A stretch of DNA of 64,000 bases from Promethearchaeota archaeon (GTDB taxonomy: Archaea > Asgardarchaeota > Lokiarchaeia > Sigyniarchaeales > SOKP01), in contig JBHLLT010000001.1 in the NCBI GenBank assembly GCA_048938855.1, positions 224,124 through 288,123 on the forward strand, in the 5' to 3' direction. The notes under the pieces were generated by a model. That model saw only the letters and a program-made list of their open reading frames with translations, made no database searches and was not told the DNA's origin. Below are positions 46,933 to 52,150 of this stretch, in pieces. A program made the position numbers and the translations under genes. The number at the start of each line of letters is the position of its first letter. Positions within the stretch are counted from its first letter, which is position 1.

Positions 46933-47325
46933 TTATTCAAAACTAAATTCTTGAATTAAGTTAGCAATATGCTCCTTAAATTCTTCTTTTATTAATGTGT
47001 AATATGTATATTTTCCTTTTTTCCATCCTCGAATTAATCCCACTTTTTCTAATTCTCTCAGATGATGTGAAATTGAAGGTTGAGATTTGTCTAAAATTGC
47101 TTCTAATTCACATACACACCTTTCTTTATTCATCAAGGCGGTCAAAATAACTAAACGTTCTTTATTACTTAATGCATTAAAAAATTCTAATAAAGAGTTT
47201 AACATATCATTAAATTTTAAATCTTTTCCAATTTTTTGTAGATTTTTGAAGTAAGCATCACCATCAGTACAATCATCGCATCCGCATAATGTATCTTTTA
47301 TTTTCGCTTTTCGATCGACTTTCAA
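46933..47325 (-). CDS. ArsR/SmtB metalloregulator, divergent from the hgcA-like gene
   Basis: FNALSNKERL..CVCELEAILDKSQPSISHHLREL...KKGKYTYY; extra N-terminal CGCDDC. Confidence 0.92.
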   Translation of the reverse strand: MKVDRKAKIKDTLCGCDDCTDGDAYFKNLQKIGKDLKFNDMLNSLLEFFNALSNKERLVILTALMNKERCVCELEAILDKSQPSISHHLRELEKVGLIRGWKKGKYTYYTLIKEEFKEHIANLIQEFSFE

Positions 47326-47409
47326 TTGAGTATCACATTATATTTATATTCTTACTATTATATAACGCATGAAATTATAAAAATTTTATCTATATTTATA
47401 ATTCTAGAT

Positions 47410-47433
47410 TCACATCGAAATATTTTTATATGA
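47410..47433. promoter_or_regulatory. Putative ArsR operator (imperfect 11-2-11 inverted repeat)
   Basis: TCACATCGAAA-TA-TTTTTATATGA, 8/11 symmetric, in the divergent intergenic region. Confidence 0.5.
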
Positions 47434-47514
47434 TACATTCTATTAATATTTCAAGTGCTGTAAAATCAAAATTAAGTTGTTATTAGGGGATGGTTACTCA
47501 TAGCAGTAGTATAC

Positions 47515-49161
47515 ATGCGAAAACTAGAAGAAGAACCAGAAACTTATGATTCTAAATTTACTGTATTAACAAAAGGAGTGAATCTTGAGGTACAAGACTG
47601 GATTTTAGATCGAATTAATGGCTCTGAATCAATATTAGAAATTGGATGTGGCACAGGTACTCTAGCAACAAAAATGGCGCAAAAAGGAAATAACGTAATT
47701 GCAATTGATAAAAACTTTCAAATGATTAATTATGCGATGAAAAATTTTCCCTCAGATTTATCTGGCGGAAAACTATTATATCAGACGGGTTCGTTTACAG
47801 ATTTAGCCACACCCCCTCGCTCTCAAGATTTAATCGTAAGTAAATTTATGTTATCTGAATTACGCCCTTTAGAACAGCAAATTTTTCTTAGAAATGTATG
47901 GAAAATGCTGAAACCCAAAGGGCGTTTAATTGTAGCTGCCGAATTTGTACCTACTGGCTTTTGGAAGATTTCATTTAAATTGAAAAGATGGCGATATAAG
48001 AAAAAATTAAGACGTTTACGAATTCAAAGCACGCATCTAGTTAAATGGTTTTATAAGTATCTAGAACCAATAGGTTATAAAATCAGTACTCTTGTAAAAT
48101 GGAAACATGGGTCAATTCAAGCCATAGAACTACAAAAGATTAATGACAATGGAACCAATGAACCTGGATATTATAGACCTAAAATTAAAAGATTTTCTGG
48201 ATTCCGATCTCAATTAAGAATTTATCGTTGTATTTTCACAGGACAAGTTGATAGGGTACCTATAGAACCCGGCATTTATAAATCTGGAAATCCTGATGAA
48301 AAATCACCGATAATTGTCACTGCAAATTATGAATTTACGTATATTAAAGTTATGCGTGATCTTAAAGGTCTAGACGCATGGGTATTATGTGTTGATTCAA
48401 ACGGTATAAATGTATGGTGTGCTGCTCGTGGTAACGATTTTGGAAACAATCAACTTATTGAAGCAGTAGAAGCTACAGGGATCAGAAATATTACTCAAAA
48501 GAAAACATTAATATTACCCCAACTTTCAGCAGGGGGTATTGCAATACCTCAACTTCCCAAAAATTCAGAGGAATTTCCTTTTAGAGTTAGATATGGACCA
48601 GTTTGGTCTAAATCAATTCCTCAATTCCTTGAAGAAAATCCTGCTAAAAAGCCTGATAGAATGAAACTAGCTCGATTTACACCTTACTATAGAATTCGTG
48701 CTGGAGTTACTCATATCTCATTTTTATTCCGAAAAATCTTCATCCTACCTTTAATTGCATTAGTTCTTCTGTTCTTAATCCTGACTTGGTTTAATAAATT
48801 ATGGTGGGTTGGTGAATTATCACTCTGGATAATTATCGCAAATTTAATTTTTGTATTATTTTTTCCAATCTCAGGTTTTACGAGGAGATTTATTATAAAG
48901 GGTATTTTTTTCGGGATAATTAATGTAATTCTCTTGGGAGGATTGGCTTATTTGATCCATAACAATATATATTACGTTCTCTGGCAGTTAGGTTTTTATT
49001 TTTGGGTGACTTATTTCTCAGTAATGTCATTTAGTGGGTACACAATGGCCACAAGCCCTAGAGAAATCCAAGAAGAATATCCCATTTTTAATTTAACGAA
49101 TAAAATTTTAATTATCCTAAGTATAGTCCTTCTGACTTTAGGATTTTTTTTTACAACATAA
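47515..49161 (+). CDS. hgcA: Class I SAM methyltransferase fused to an HgcA-like corrinoid protein with C-terminal TM domain
   Basis: ILEIGCGTG motif I; IEPGIYKSGNPDEKSPIIVTANYEFT, DSNGINVWCAA (Cys302), LILPQLSAGG, YGPV; about 5 TM helices; FSGYT..TSP. Confidence 0.8.
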   Translation: MRKLEEEPETYDSKFTVLTKGVNLEVQDWILDRINGSESILEIGCGTGTLATKMAQKGNNVIAIDKNFQMINYAMKNFPSDLSGGKLLYQTGSFTDLATPPRSQDLIVSKFMLSELRPLEQQIFLRNVWKMLKPKGRLIVAAEFVPTGFWKISFKLKRWRYKKKLRRLRIQSTHLVKWFYKYLEPIGYKISTLVKWKHGSIQAIELQKINDNGTNEPGYYRPKIKRFSGFRSQLRIYRCIFTGQVDRVPIEPGIYKSGNPDEKSPIIVTANYEFTYIKVMRDLKGLDAWVLCVDSNGINVWCAARGNDFGNNQLIEAVEATGIRNITQKKTLILPQLSAGGIAIPQLPKNSEEFPFRVRYGPVWSKSIPQFLEENPAKKPDRMKLARFTPYYRIRAGVTHISFLFRKIFILPLIALVLLFLILTWFNKLWWVGELSLWIIIANLIFVLFFPISGFTRRFIIKGIFFGIINVILLGGLAYLIHNNIYYVLWQLGFYFWVTYFSVMSFSGYTMATSPREIQEEYPIFNLTNKILIILSIVLLTLGFFFTT

Positions 49162-49205
49162 ATTTAAAAAAAATGAAAGATGTATAAAAATAGGAGGTAA
49201 GTAAA

Positions 49206-49568
49206 ATGACAGAAACTAATCTTGAATCATTAAATTTTTCTGAATTTATTAAAGATGTCTTAATTTTTATTGATAAAGACGTATGTAATGGTTGTGGGCT
49301 TTGTGCAGAATTATGTCCGTTCGGACTTCCACAAGCTAATAGTTCAGGAAAATATGAGATAAGTAGACCGGAATTATGTACAGAATGTAGTGCCTGTAAG
49401 AGAAATTGTCCAGTTCAAGCAATTATCTTGAATGAACGTAAAGGATGTGGATGTCTTTGGAACGCCCGAGGAGTAGCAAAGAATAAGAAAAAGGGCATCA
49501 CAGTTGAAAATTCATGTGGATGCGGACCAACTAACGAGAACAGCGTAAATAACAGTTGTTGTGGATAA
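49206..49568 (+). CDS. hgcB: HgcB-like 2x[4Fe-4S] ferredoxin with Cys-rich tail
   Basis: CNGCGLCAELCP, CTECSACKRNCP, GCGC and terminal SCCG; GGAGGT RBS. Confidence 0.8.
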   Translation: MTETNLESLNFSEFIKDVLIFIDKDVCNGCGLCAELCPFGLPQANSSGKYEISRPELCTECSACKRNCPVQAIILNERKGCGCLWNARGVAKNKKKGITVENSCGCGPTNENSVNNSCCG

Positions 49569-50523
49569 GTTGGATATAAATTCTAAAAAAGGCTTATTTT
49601 TTGGAACCATAACAGTTTTCTTAGTGGGACTGCAACCTGTAATTGCGAATTCAAGGCCCGAAATTATAGATGCATTTATTTTTGCTGCAATTACAGCTTT
49701 AATCGAAGCCGTAGTTTTCCTTCCATTATATTATCTTGAAAGAAGAAAATTAAGTTCAAATCAAGAAATTGACACAAATAAGTCTTTATTGAATGGCTGG
49801 AAAAAAAAAGATAATATAAAATTGCTTGTGTTGATTGGATTATCTTTTGCAATTATTCCAATTTTATTATATATTGGTTATGAAATTACAGGGTCAACAA
49901 ATAGTACCATAATCTTAAAATCTGAAATCATTTTTGGTTTATTATTTGGTTTTTTAATATTAAATGAAAAAGTCACTAAAATTCAAGTTATTTTTTGCTT
50001 AATTTTATTTATTGGATTGTTTTTCACAGTTACTAAAGGATTTACTAACATAAATGAATTGAATATAGGAGTGTTGGTTTTAATCATAAGTGTGGCTTCA
50101 TTTACTTTTATTCATTCTTTAACTAAAGTCAAATTTGATAAAAATGAATTATTTCCTACTCAAATTGTATTTATTAGAAATTTACTAAGTGGATTATTGC
50201 TATTAGTGCTCTATATTATCTTTTTCCCTATAAAGAACCTTCAAATAGTCTTTAATCCTAATTATTTTTTGTATTTTTTATTTATGGGTTTGGATTATGG
50301 ATTTAGTCTATACTTTTGGTATAAAACATTAACCTTCATCCAGATTGGCACTGCTACGATAATTAATTCTCTAACTCCATTCTCCACAGCATTCTTCGCT
50401 TTTATTATTCGCGGCGATCCTTTCACTTTATTTCATCTTATTGGTGTAATTATCATAATAATTTCTATTATTGTAATTGTAAGAGAAAAAGAGAATAAAA
50501 AAGAATTGGAGGTTCAAAATTAG
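49561..50523 (+). CDS. DMT/EamA-family transporter
   Basis: About 10 TM; LFGFLILNEKVT and FAFIIRGDPFT; abuts or overlaps the hgcB stop. Confidence 0.85.
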   Translation: MDKLDINSKKGLFFGTITVFLVGLQPVIANSRPEIIDAFIFAAITALIEAVVFLPLYYLERRKLSSNQEIDTNKSLLNGWKKKDNIKLLVLIGLSFAIIPILLYIGYEITGSTNSTIILKSEIIFGLLFGFLILNEKVTKIQVIFCLILFIGLFFTVTKGFTNINELNIGVLVLIISVASFTFIHSLTKVKFDKNELFPTQIVFIRNLLSGLLLLVLYIIFFPIKNLQIVFNPNYFLYFLFMGLDYGFSLYFWYKTLTFIQIGTATIINSLTPFSTAFFAFIIRGDPFTLFHLIGVIIIIISIIVIVREKENKKELEVQN

Positions 50524-50620
50524 GATTCGAGTTCGAAGTTCGTTCTAAGTTCAACATTATCATCTATTTATAGTATAAATTCTTATTAAATATAATAAAA
50601 TCTATTAAAAGTGAAATTTA

Positions 50621-51199
50621 ATGAAAAAAAGTAAAATTATTCCAAAAGCATATTTATTTCCAATGCCAGTTGCCCTTATTGGGGCAAATGTAAATGGGAA
50701 GCCAAACTTTGAGACACTTGCGTATGTTGGTATTGTAGAAGCTAATCCTCCAATGATTTCAATAGCTTCTTGGGAAACTCATTATACTAACATCGGGATC
50801 AATCAAAATCGAACTTTTAGTGTTAATACACCAACCGAAACTATAGCAGAATTAGTGGATTATTGTGGTATTGTTTCAGGAAAAGAAGAAGATAAGTCAG
50901 AAGTATTTGAAGTTTTTTATGGGGATCTCAAAACCGCTCCCATGGTAAGCCGTTCACCGTTAAATCTTGAATGTGAGGTTATAAAGACTTTTAAGATCAC
51001 AGAATTAGTAGATATCGAGAAAGGGCATGAAATCTTTATCGGAAAAATAGTAAATGTCTATGCAGATGAGGATATTTTAACAGAAGGGATACCTGATATT
51101 GCTAAGTTGAAAACTTACTTGTATTCAATAAACAACTATTGGAAAATTGGCAAAAAATTAGCATCAGCTTTCGAAATAGGTAAAAATTATAAAAAATGA
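50621..51199 (+). CDS. Flavin reductase-like FMN-binding protein
   Basis: FPMPVALIG, FSVNTP, CGIVSG, PLNLEC and HEIFIGKI motifs. Confidence 0.88.
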   Translation: MKKSKIIPKAYLFPMPVALIGANVNGKPNFETLAYVGIVEANPPMISIASWETHYTNIGINQNRTFSVNTPTETIAELVDYCGIVSGKEEDKSEVFEVFYGDLKTAPMVSRSPLNLECEVIKTFKITELVDIEKGHEIFIGKIVNVYADEDILTEGIPDIAKLKTYLYSINNYWKIGKKLASAFEIGKNYKK

Positions 51200-51227
51200 A
51201 GTAAAAACCAAATTGCTTTTGATTAAA

Positions 51228-51794
51228 ATGAGTATTAAAAAATTAAATAAACATGTTATTGAAGGGAATCTACTCAGTCCACTCTCCGTGATTTTGGTGG
51301 GCGCAAATGTTAATAAAAAACCGAATTATCTGGTAATTGGATATAGTTGCCCATTTGATTTTGGTAAATATATTTTCTTCAGCTTATATCCAAAACGTTA
51401 TACTGCAATCGGTATTCATGAGAATATGACATTCAGTGTAAATATTCCTTCGGAAGATCTCGTGGAAAAAGCTAATATTTGTGGAAGTAAATCTGGACGA
51501 GATATTGATAAAAGTGCTCTCTTTGATAATTTTTACGGAGAATTAAAAACAGCGCCTATGATTCGTGAATGTCCAGTAAATATAGAATGTAAAGTACATG
51601 AAATCCTCGACTATGGTGATGGTGAAGGAATTATCGGTAAAGTAATTAAATCTTATGTAGATCAACAATACACTGTGGAAGAAGCAGGAAAAGTGAAACT
51701 TGATTGGAGAAAGATCCACCCGATTATTTGGACCACTGGAGGAGATTTTAATTATTATAAATTAGGAGAACGAATTCTTGTTAAAGAAAATTAA
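51228..51794 (+). CDS. Flavin reductase-like FMN-binding protein (tandem paralog)
   Basis: FSVNIP, CGSKSGRDIDK and APMIRECPVNIECKV; likely ATG 51228. Confidence 0.88.
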   Translation: MSIKKLNKHVIEGNLLSPLSVILVGANVNKKPNYLVIGYSCPFDFGKYIFFSLYPKRYTAIGIHENMTFSVNIPSEDLVEKANICGSKSGRDIDKSALFDNFYGELKTAPMIRECPVNIECKVHEILDYGDGEGIIGKVIKSYVDQQYTVEEAGKVKLDWRKIHPIIWTTGGDFNYYKLGERILVKEN

Positions 51795-51814
51795 ATATAA
51801 ATAGGCGAATTAAA

Positions 51815-52150
51815 ATGTCAGAAATTTTTCCTGAACCTGTATTAAAATTGCCAAGGGCAGATATACCAATAGATGGACTTAAAGCATTTATTGCCCAAGG
51901 GGACTACTTTCAAATTTTATACATGGAATTTGAAAAAGATGTAATTATTGAGGAACACTCTCATGAGAGTCAATGGGGGGTCATTCTTGAGGGTCAAATT
52001 GATTTAAAAATAGATGGTAAAGAGTTTGTATTTACAAAAGGCGATCGGTATTTCATTCCAAAAGGAGTAAAACATTCAGCTAAAATCTATAAAGGGTATG
52101 CCGATATAACCTATTTCAACCAAAAAGATAGATATAAAGTTAGAACATAA
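51815..52150 (+). CDS. Cupin-domain protein
   Basis: HSHESQWGVILEG...GDRYFIPKGVKHSA. Confidence 0.88.
   Translation: MSEIFPEPVLKLPRADIPIDGLKAFIAQGDYFQILYMEFEKDVIIEEHSHESQWGVILEGQIDLKIDGKEFVFTKGDRYFIPKGVKHSAKIYKGYADITYFNQKDRYKVRT

Follow-up and report, generated by a model that had tools for sequence, protein, structure and literature searches.

The 64,000-nucleotide stretch of Promethearchaeota DNA analysed here (the window) carries an operon that we read, with a probability of about one half, as a cobalamin methyltransferase module of Asgard archaea, anchored in the membrane and under ArsR repression, in which a CpaM-type methyltransferase fused to an HgcA-like corrinoid protein, together with an HgcB-like ferredoxin, would belong to an arsenic (metalloid) stress regulon and act on a thiol-bound metal(loid). 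Most likely the fusion acts on arsenic or another toxic metal(loid) of that kind rather than as a standard mercury methylase, because its regulator site is apparently the same as that of the arsenite pump; As or Sb is the more likely substrate when set against Hg. The four open reading frames of the initial annotation (an ArsR gene transcribed divergently from a fusion gene, a ferredoxin gene and a DMT transporter gene) were all confirmed from the ORF calls and the sequence, and the locus comprises the following features:

46933-47325, minus strand: ArsR, 130 aa, TTG start
47410-47433, plus strand: putative ArsR operator, a 24-bp imperfect palindrome, TCAnAT-N12-ATnTGA (PWM, shuffles)
47515-49161, plus strand: fusion (methyltransferase + HgcA-like), 548 aa, without internal stop
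47515-48135, plus strand: divergent CpaM-type class I SAM methyltransferase domain of the fusion, aa 1-207 (NF043040; motif I intact, aa 42-48)
48217-48699, plus strand: HgcA-like corrinoid-binding domain, about aa 235-395 (PF03599)
48409-48432, plus strand: variant cap helix NVWCAARG (sequence)
48700-49161, plus strand: C-terminal membrane domain, about five helices (hydropathy, AlphaFold, fold match)
49206-49568, plus strand: ferredoxin, 120 aa (Fer4)
49561-50523, plus strand: EamA/DMT transporter, 320 aa (EamA twice, PF00892, E 8.8e-32)
50621-51794, plus strand: two flavin-reductase-like genes (PF01613)

A domain search placed Methyltransf_25 (aa 40-136, E 4.6e-15) and CdhD (aa 235-339, E 1.7e-15) on the single 548-aa chain, as the proposal of one ORF joining a SAM methyltransferase, a corrinoid domain and a transmembrane region had implied. 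The fusion stops at 49159-49161 and the ferredoxin is a separate ORF, while the DMT frame either overlaps the ferredoxin stop by 8 nt or starts 1 nt past it. Scans for sigma-70 promoters and terminators returned hits at chance level only.

By far the best NCBIfam match of the N-terminal domain was NF043040 (CpaM; 137 bits, E 6e-40, model positions 5-215 of 216). Homology thus spans the whole model and the domain is associated with a corrinoid protein, but its score falls below the CpaM cut-off of 180 bits; some other fused Asgard members lie above that cut-off, at 192-276 bits. The domain can be aligned with split CpaM proteins, residues G46, G48 and D65 are invariant, and it otherwise most resembles small-molecule and quinone methyltransferases, the next-best scores being those of MenG/UbiE and phospholipid methyltransferase models. 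An ArsM identity was rejected, as the ArsM model NF008823 gave 25 bits against a cut-off of 263 and the only cysteine of the domain lies within motif I, the catalytic cysteines of ArsM being absent. Split forms exist, among them a bona fide CpaM and HgcAB-like fusion pair on contig C46 of the window's own genome (256 and 363 bits), and a class I methyltransferase was either fused or directly upstream at every examined non-canonical HgcA-like locus with upstream DNA, in four architectures and of CpaM type wherever scanned; these observations agree with the Rosetta-stone arrangement suggested initially. No methyltransferase was found beside canonical hgcA (three loci with upstream DNA) or beside the one true Asgard hgcAB. 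The SAM motif is present. The idea that SAM loads the corrinoid in cis was weakened, in that the fusion does not solve SAM loading in canonical HgcA: purified HgcAB accepts a methyl group from SAM although it has no methyltransferase domain (PMC11588087). A complex prediction with the CpaM domain, the corrinoid domain and SAM scored 0.22, against a mark of 0.32, and carries no weight for or against in-cis loading.

In the corrinoid domain, the cobalt-ligating cysteine (Cys93 of ND132) has its counterpart in Cys302, a predicted cobalt ligand encoded by TGT at 48418-48420, and both Cys302 and Arg305 were invariant in 93 of 93 homologs. The earlier description of this domain as complete and HgcA-type is true of its architecture alone and not of family membership, because the cap helix NVWCAARG ends in RG rather than in the GK of the high-stringency motif N[VI]WC[AS][AGS]GK, and R305 is invariant. 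Scores were below the cut-off for each of three families, namely 172-174 bits against 275 for NF040863 (HgcA), 181 against 285 for NF043039 (HgcAB-like fusion) and 72 against 306 for NF003195 (CdhE/AcsC). The membrane anchor was corroborated as an HgcA-type C-terminal domain by hydrophobic segments at about aa 397-548, by five long helices (aa 390-547) in the AlphaFold model (pLDDT 82, pTM 0.77) and by a best PDB match to the HgcAB model 9a0b; the cap helix (aa 298-307) is of low confidence in the AlphaFold model, which is without cofactors.

The ferredoxin is HgcB-like, with two [4Fe-4S] motifs of the CxxCxxCxxxCP form, and it adjoins the 3' side of the fusion gene wherever the contig reaches. 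Its GCGC (C81/C83) aligns with GVGC/Cys73 of true HgcB and its Cys-rich tail ends in the vicinal pair C118 and C119, GCGC being kept in 46 of 47 ferredoxin homologs and the terminal CC in 34 of 47. Residues needed for Hg methylation by the mutagenesis described in PMC7305189 are those kept in this ferredoxin, and the HgcB-type metal-binding cysteines that the separate protein retains are missing from fused HgcAB-like tails. The HgcB-type assignment therefore stands for the metal-binding cysteines but not for the NF040864 model (49 bits against a cut-off of 99), and the second cluster motif starts CTECSA where true HgcBs read C[MI]ECGA. As an HgcA/HgcB pair in the family sense, the two proteins failed on HMM cut-offs, strict motif and tree placement alike.

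Both Pfam domains of the fusion were present in all of the at least 120 homologs listed (64-100% identity, nearly all full-length). Fifty-two GTDB loci carry the fusion; since this set was retrieved by means of words taken from the window's protein and over-represents acr3-adjacent lineages, genus-wide counts were added, and the fusion occurs in 46 of the 54 genomes of the host's genus. It is present across Asgard lineages, including the cultured P. syntrophicum MK-D1 and Ca. L. ossiferum (accessions of the cultured Lokiarchaeia: QEE17992-QEE17995 for MK-D1 and UYP44053-UYP44056 for B35), and both cultured Lokiarchaeia have the order arsR<->acr3-fusion-ferredoxin. An HgcA above the curated cut-off was found in only 1 of 301 Asgard genomes, many of which hold sub-threshold proteins of the fusion type. 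A methyltransferase-HgcA-like fusion was not found described in the literature searched, which was largely open-access, and the name CpaM did not occur in the papers that one search listed.

The ArsR/SmtB protein (PF01022, HTH_5, E 6.6e-16; NF033788, 77.9 bits, above the cut-off of 55) has conserved cysteine motifs, CxCxxC clustered near the N-terminus and CVC within helix 3, and it is probably the repressor of the fusion operon; a divergent ArsR occurs at 37 of 53 related loci. The palindrome has a weaker copy at about 47370-47393, and it may in part be promoter sequence; it occurs in perfect form in 23 of the 38 arsR intergenic regions (0.065 expected from shuffles). Genome-wide, the two highest PWM scores belonged to the site before the fusion, at 30.6, and to the acr3 promoter of the window's genome, at 26.7, followed by 21.2; the matrix was trained on orthologous promoters, and the sharing with acr3 denotes common descent and retention rather than independent origin. 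At the level of sequence, then, the locus combines an ArsR with a cysteine site and an operator common with acr3, as expected of a member of an ars regulon, and the metal(loid)-sensing control postulated earlier appears sound. In the window's genome acr3 lies on another contig, and the fusion has kept its own ArsR and palindrome.

Among the 53 loci, Acr3 was encoded at 32, ArsC at five and ArsM at one, and Acr3 adjacency within the genus was 5 of 46. The window's seven-member sub-clade is nested among acr3-adjacent lineages, ArsR having been kept after parting from acr3, and arsR<->acr3-fusion-ferredoxin is the ancestral arrangement. In a second clade, 16 loci carry a gene for a Cys-rich MarR upstream and two have ArsR with the operator; neither ars genes nor a recognised regulator were found at 7 loci of one clade or at most non-Loki Asgard loci. 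Elsewhere the window's genome encodes a bona fide ArsM (341 bits), and a MerB search of the genome gave no match, but its controls gave none either. The ars context is no proof of an arsenic substrate, because arsR, acr3, arsC and arsM also border canonical hgcAB (PMC7438021), a gene pair that As induces, and even so methylarsenicals could not be detected from wild-type ND132 (10.1101/2022.10.17.512643).

The coupled DMT gene had been cast as the exporter of the product. It is present and coupled at the window's locus, but it adjoins the fusion in only 2 of 53 loci and 2 of 46 genus genomes, so the exporter part of the proposal is not supported and a conserved exporter role was rejected; the conserved transporter is Acr3, which the window's locus lacks. 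The DMT gene (26% GC, versus 33% for the fusion) is a lineage-specific neighbour outside the conserved module. In the closest relatives without it (synteny L010-L014, L019) the flavin-reductase-like genes lie directly 3' of the ferredoxin gene, and they possibly extend the operon in the window's sub-lineage only.

Phylogenetic analysis placed the corrinoid domain of the fusion in a lineage of its own, outside the canonical HgcA clade (100/97* and 100/96*) and outside the fused HgcAB-like clade (99-100/97*). A 100/100* branch separates it from CdhE/AcsC, which bears out the expectation that it would not group with CdhD/E; identity as a CdhE paralog was rejected on this separation and on the 72 bits against 306, and the genome's real CdhE lies on contig C49 (477 bits). 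The grouping with non-methylating paralogs that had been named as a possible refutation was borne out by half: the domain is separate from canonical HgcA, but the fused HgcAB clade does not include it either. A sister position to canonical HgcA was not rejected (p-AU 0.54). Monophyly of all non-canonical HgcA-like proteins was dropped as a firm result, its support being model-dependent (94/91 under LG+G4 versus 32/85 under LG+C20). It is a tentative suggestion, and one we consider improbable as a whole, that the fusion represents a third HgcA superfamily branch, centred on Asgard archaea and possibly sister of canonical HgcAB, which preserves an arrangement where CpaM as a dedicated SAM domain loads a thiolate-ligated corrinoid that methylates As or Sb.

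In the mechanism that we propose, a soft metal(loid) would bind the Cys-rich ArsR and free the operator, as its family, synteny and the common palindrome suggest, and the two [4Fe-4S] clusters of the ferredoxin would reduce the corrinoid to Co(I), by analogy with HgcAB. The fused CpaM would then bind SAM and methylate Co(I) in cis, with Cys302 as the lower ligand, and the GCGC and terminal CC thiols of the ferredoxin would hold out a thiol-bound metal(loid), which is most likely As(III)/methyl-As(III) or Sb(III), as the methyl acceptor. Export, if any, would proceed through Acr3 or another route and not through the DMT transporter. Hg methylation would be a side activity at most. On the side of this explanation are the full-length conserved fusion with its invariant SAM motif and Co-ligand cysteine, the methyltransferase pairing, the cysteine set of the ferredoxin, the ars synteny, the retention of ArsR after parting from acr3 and the operator common with acr3. 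On the other side are the ArsM that the genome already has, the low Acr3 adjacency in the genus (5 of 46), the loci without ars genes, the ars flanks of canonical hgcAB, the likeness of the CpaM domain to small-molecule and quinone methyltransferases, and culture results in which fused HgcAB-like relatives that likewise have CpaM showed no Hg methylation (PMC10087281, PMC4646819).

The same regulatory and synteny evidence would also accommodate an As- or metal-regulated system in which Co(I) and the ferredoxin reduce or demethylate an organo-metalloid (e.g., methyl-As), with CpaM methylating a product directly or only reactivating oxidised cobalt, a reading we think rather unlikely. A separate ArsM already covers As(III) methylation, and methionine synthase offers a precedent for reactivating cobalamin with SAM. 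Reduction of halomethanes by HgcAB is possible (preprint 10.64898/2026.04.26.720869), but thiolate-ligated methyl-Co has been shown for HgcAB (PMC11588087), and the retention of a CpaM partner in every non-canonical lineage examined would suit a stoichiometric role better than occasional repair. We are similarly doubtful that the substrate is organic and probably membrane-associated (a quinone, lipid or halomethane), as for the CpaM + HgcAB-like paralog, with the ars context reflecting general thiol/redox stress control or inheritance. The membrane anchor, the next-best matches of CpaM to MenG/UbiE and phospholipid methyltransferase models, the many Asgard loci without ars genes and the fused HgcAB-like paralogs without metal-binding tails would all fit such a substrate; the fusion lineage, however, specifically keeps the Cys73 equivalent and the terminal CC, retains ArsR and the operator away from acr3, and has Cys-rich regulators upstream in two clades.

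A dedicated mercury-methylation operon, that is, a true hgcAB with in-cis SAM loading and a DMT transporter exporting the product, is very improbable. Cys302, the membrane domain and the HgcB-type cysteines are all present, the sister relation to canonical HgcA was not rejected, and cap-helix substitutions do not always abolish activity (PMC10087281); yet the proteins score too low for NF040863 and NF040864, do not match the high-stringency motif list, fall outside the canonical clade, have the DMT gene adjacent in only 2 of 46 genomes and have acr3 as regulon partner, and Hg methylation is not known from any isolate without the motif. Mis-assembly or chance read-through uniting two genes can be dismissed, although the host is a MAG with 7% contamination, on the strength of independent fused homologs (at least 120, in JGI, ENA, NCBI and Logan data), an intact fusion in two closed genomes of cultured strains and a GC content that is even on both sides of the junction.

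Two questions about HgcAB stand open, its native role and, because the purified protein is without a SAM-binding domain (PMC11588087), the place at which SAM binds. The fusion family provides an HgcA relative with a built-in SAM module, HgcB-type thiols and an arsenic-type regulator, and because it occurs in two cultured Lokiarchaeia the idea of an arsenic origin is directly testable. If the tentative suggestion of a third HgcA branch is true, the fusion would be a cobalamin-dependent, ArsM-independent metalloid methyltransferase, and would point to metalloid detoxification as the original role, with mercury methylation arising out of it once CpaM had been lost. For surveys, strict screens drop these sub-threshold proteins and loose screens (bit score at least 100) would call them mercury methylators, a choice that alters estimates of mercury methylators in anoxic sediments.

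Compared with known systems, the fusion has in common with CdhE/AcsC (NF003195) a homologous cobalamin-binding Rossmann domain (PF03599; PDB 2h9a, 4djd), but differs in its score (72 bits versus 306) and in the 100/100* branch between them. With ArsM (NF008823) and ars operons it has in common a class I SAM fold and an operon or regulon with arsR, acr3 and sometimes arsC and arsM; in contrast to ArsM, the fused methyltransferase has one cysteine (motif I), reaches 25 bits versus 263 and would need the corrinoid for As. The CpaM + HgcAB-like fusion (NF043040/NF043039; of the Podar 2015 kind, PMC4646819) consists of the same modules, namely CpaM, a corrinoid protein with a membrane domain, and a ferredoxin. 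In our system, however, CpaM is joined to the corrinoid protein and the ferredoxin is free, the domains are under the cut-off (137/180 and 181/285) and outside the fused HgcAB clade (99/97*), and the ferredoxin, in an ArsR regulon setting, has the metal-binding cysteines that the fused tails lack. Relative to canonical HgcA/HgcB (NF040863/NF040864; P. mercurii ND132; PMC11588087, PMC7305189), the system has an extra N-terminal SAM methyltransferase, RG in the cap helix and CTECSA in the ferredoxin, misses both HMM cut-offs and lies outside the canonical clade; like canonical HgcAB, it has a corrinoid domain with a Cys cap helix and a membrane domain, a separate downstream 2x[4Fe-4S] ferredoxin with a terminal Cys pair and a further cysteine 13-15 residues past its second cluster motif, a neighbourhood with ArsR and ars genes, and SAM as methyl donor, shown for HgcAB and presumed for the fusion.

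The four open reading frames called by the initial annotation were borne out by an ORF and sequence check, and are given here with the associated features:

46933-47325, minus strand: ArsR
47410-47433: 24-bp palindrome, putative operator
47515-49161, plus strand: fusion of a CpaM-type SAM methyltransferase, an HgcA-like corrinoid domain and a membrane domain
49206-49568, plus strand: HgcB-like ferredoxin
49561-50523, plus strand: EamA/DMT transporter
50621-52150, plus strand: two tandem flavin-reductase-like genes and a cupin, in the window sub-lineage only

The proposed joining of a methyltransferase to an HgcA-type domain in one ORF proved real: a single 548-aa chain carries a class I methyltransferase, a PF03599 corrinoid domain and then the membrane domain. 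Judged by these homologs, the host is a Lokiarchaeia (Promethearchaeota) MAG. Both domains were present in all of at least 120 homologs (64-100% identity), and the fusion was found in 46 of the 54 genomes of the genus. Two closed genomes, from Promethearchaeum syntrophicum MK-D1 (QEE17993) and from Ca. Lokiarchaeum ossiferum (UYP44054), also carry it unbroken, a distribution that leaves an artefact a negligible prospect. At 47500-47517, the homologs' usual start ATG reads ATA (47500) in the window; the start is either this rare ATA or an ATG five codons on, which drops five conserved residues (548 versus 553 aa). One Loki-type locus with Loki flanking genes is titled Nanopelagicaceae bacterium (L038), probably a mislabelled or mis-binned contig.

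The top NCBIfam match of the methyltransferase domain was NF043040, 'corrinoid protein-associated methyltransferase CpaM', which it matched along almost its full length at 137 bits, below the cut-off of 180 bits; the ArsM model scored 25 bits. The domain could be aligned with stand-alone CpaM proteins; motif I is kept, as is the acidic residue that follows strand 2, and no ArsM-type cysteines were seen. Split versions were found, including one in the same genome, where the gene for a true CpaM (256 bits) is followed by that for a true HgcAB-like fusion (363 bits) as a second corrinoid system lacking ars genes; MK-D1 also carries such a pair (L114, QEE16896).

Four arrangements of the three modules in Asgard genomes (L-numbers, homologous loci)
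CpaM and HgcAB-like fusion: L008:6341-8121 (window's genome, contig C46)
CpaM::HgcA-like fusion and ferredoxin: window type
CpaM::HgcA-like::ferredoxin triple fusion, ~600 aa: L072:5682-7472 and L073:5860-7665, another Asgard family
Three separate genes: L068:5550-7488 and L078:5867-7767

The L072 triple fusion exceeded the cut-offs of both NF043039 (HgcAB-like) and NF043040. The three-gene loci encode a CpaM-like protein, an HgcA-like protein without a standard cap motif match and a short ferredoxin without tail cysteines, and their genomes carry a fusion as well; CpaM is also joined to the corrinoid domain in an Anaerolineae-type protein placed within the fused-HgcAB clade. The Rosetta-stone inference drawn from the fusion holds for the non-canonical proteins, because a methyltransferase was fused or adjacent at every non-canonical HgcA-like locus examined with upstream DNA (CpaM-type wherever scanned) and CpaM was not found at the four canonical hgcAB loci with flanks. 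It is less telling for canonical HgcAB, since the purified two-protein complex is methylated by SAM (PMC11588087).

The description of the corrinoid domain as complete HgcA-type stood only in part. Cys302 was invariant in fusion homologs, but the window motif NVWCAARG is absent from the high-stringency list of Capo et al. (PMC10087281), and the domain scored 174 bits on the HgcA model (cut-off 275), 181 on the HgcAB-like model (285) and 72 on the CdhE model (306). In trees of the corrinoid domain under LG+G4 and LG+C20, canonical HgcA formed one clade (100/97 and 100/96, respectively) and fused HgcAB-like proteins a separate one (100/97 and 99/97), while the window protein fell outside both, grouping with Loki and Thor fusions as a third lineage (99/95 and 95/92); all three were distant from CdhE. 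The trees did not fix the branching order of these lineages, and a sister relationship of the window lineage to canonical HgcA was not rejected (p-AU 0.54). Lin et al. (PMC10083202) put Loki and Thor sequences in the 'fused HgcAB' subtree; no mention of a methyltransferase fusion was found in the passages searched. The HgcA cut-off was exceeded in just 1 of 301 Asgard genomes. The sole canonical hgcA-hgcB pair among them (L062:732-3716, genome G025, contig C110), is preceded by a gene for an ArsM-like protein that scores below cut-off, and may reflect either real transfer or mis-binning (genome contamination 9%).

The ferredoxin gene followed the fusion wherever the contig extended far enough. 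Its HgcB-type label was upheld by cysteines but not by score (49 bits versus a cut-off of 99): the protein retains both features critical in HgcB mutagenesis, a Cys ~13 residues past the second cluster motif and a terminal Cys pair (PMC7305189). Among homologs, GCGC, which lines up with HgcB GVGC, occurred in 46/47 and terminal CC in 34/47; fused HgcAB tails and three-gene-type ferredoxins have neither, whereas the window lineage has both. These thiols are the best sequence evidence of thiophilic metal(loid) handling in the window lineage.

Across 53 related loci, a set over-representing acr3-adjacent lineages, the neighbours counted were ArsR (37 loci), Acr3 (32), a thioredoxin-like gene (28), a second small gene (28), DUF166 (14), ArsC (5) and ArsM (1); genus-wide, acr3 adjoins the fusion in only 5 of 46 genomes. 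The order arsR<->acr3-fusion-ferredoxin occurs in both MK-D1 and B35 (Ca. Lokiarchaeum ossiferum). The window genome has this cluster divided: arsR<->acr3 and the two small genes are on contig C49 (L090:3575-6160: ArsR paralog, acr3, small ORF, thioredoxin-like protein with a CACEW motif, second unknown small protein), arsM is on C50, and the fusion is in the window. There the fusion has a second ArsR, 56% identical to the C49 paralog, which has fewer N-terminal cysteines. The window's sub-clade (seven members) is nested among acr3-adjacent lineages and therefore left acr3 and kept the regulator. Of 38 arsR intergenic regions, 23 carry the palindrome in perfect form, against 0.065 expected, and the two top-ranking matches in the whole genome were the fusion and acr3 promoters. 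The divergent ArsR and this putative shared operator suggest the proposed metal-sensing control, although the link is not universal across loci. In a second clade, the gene upstream of the fusion encodes a Cys-rich MarR at 16 loci (L101:3526-3990 and 15 related) and ArsR, with the operator, at two; at seven more no regulator was recognised. The MarR has vicinal Cys pairs C-terminally and usually also N-terminally, which makes it a candidate sensor of thiols or metals. ArsR is present at two Thor-type loci, and no ars genes were seen at most other Asgard loci. Between regulator and fusion, L097:2130-3943 encodes an FMN-reductase-family protein and a 4Fe-4S double-cluster protein, presumably resembling epoxyqueuosine reductase, and in another Asgard family a ChrB chromate-resistance domain protein lies ~2 kb from the fusion (L064:4285-4800).

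The claim of a self-contained system with an exporter was not supported: the DMT is a genuine EamA protein with homologs in 52 of 54 genus genomes, yet it adjoins the fusion in just 2/53 loci and 2/46 genomes. It looks like a recent insertion, because flavin-reductase-like genes directly follow the ferredoxin in five close relatives. Right behind its stop, GTTC-containing units are repeated over a short stretch (50524-50560), possibly a scar of that insertion.

The locus combines its domain anatomy with a conserved SAM motif, a Co-ligand Cys, ferredoxin thiols, a palindrome shared with acr3 and an ancestral ars context. By analogy with HgcAB (PMC11588087, PMC7305189), the CpaM domain would supply SAM, the ferredoxin would reduce cobalt and methyl-cobalt would hand its methyl to a thiol-bound metal(loid). 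We put the probability of metal(loid) methylation at about one half, with arsenic or antimony species the favoured candidate substrate because of the regulon. Set against that substrate, the window genome already encodes ArsM, the same neighbours also flank canonical hgcAB (PMC7438021), and wild-type ND132 gave no detectable methylarsenicals (10.1101/2022.10.17.512643). Metal-regulated chemistry other than metal(loid) methylation is unlikely, an organic substrate is given the same low weight, and a dedicated Hg system is very improbable.

The component parts of this metal(loid) methylation candidate are already known, CpaM and the HgcAB-like fusion having been named by NCBI curators; we found no tested function for either, and no paper in the literature that describes either the CpaM::HgcA-like fusion or the ars regulon around it. 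What the window contributes is a module split from acr3 with its ArsR and operator retained, and the rejection of the DMT as part of the system.
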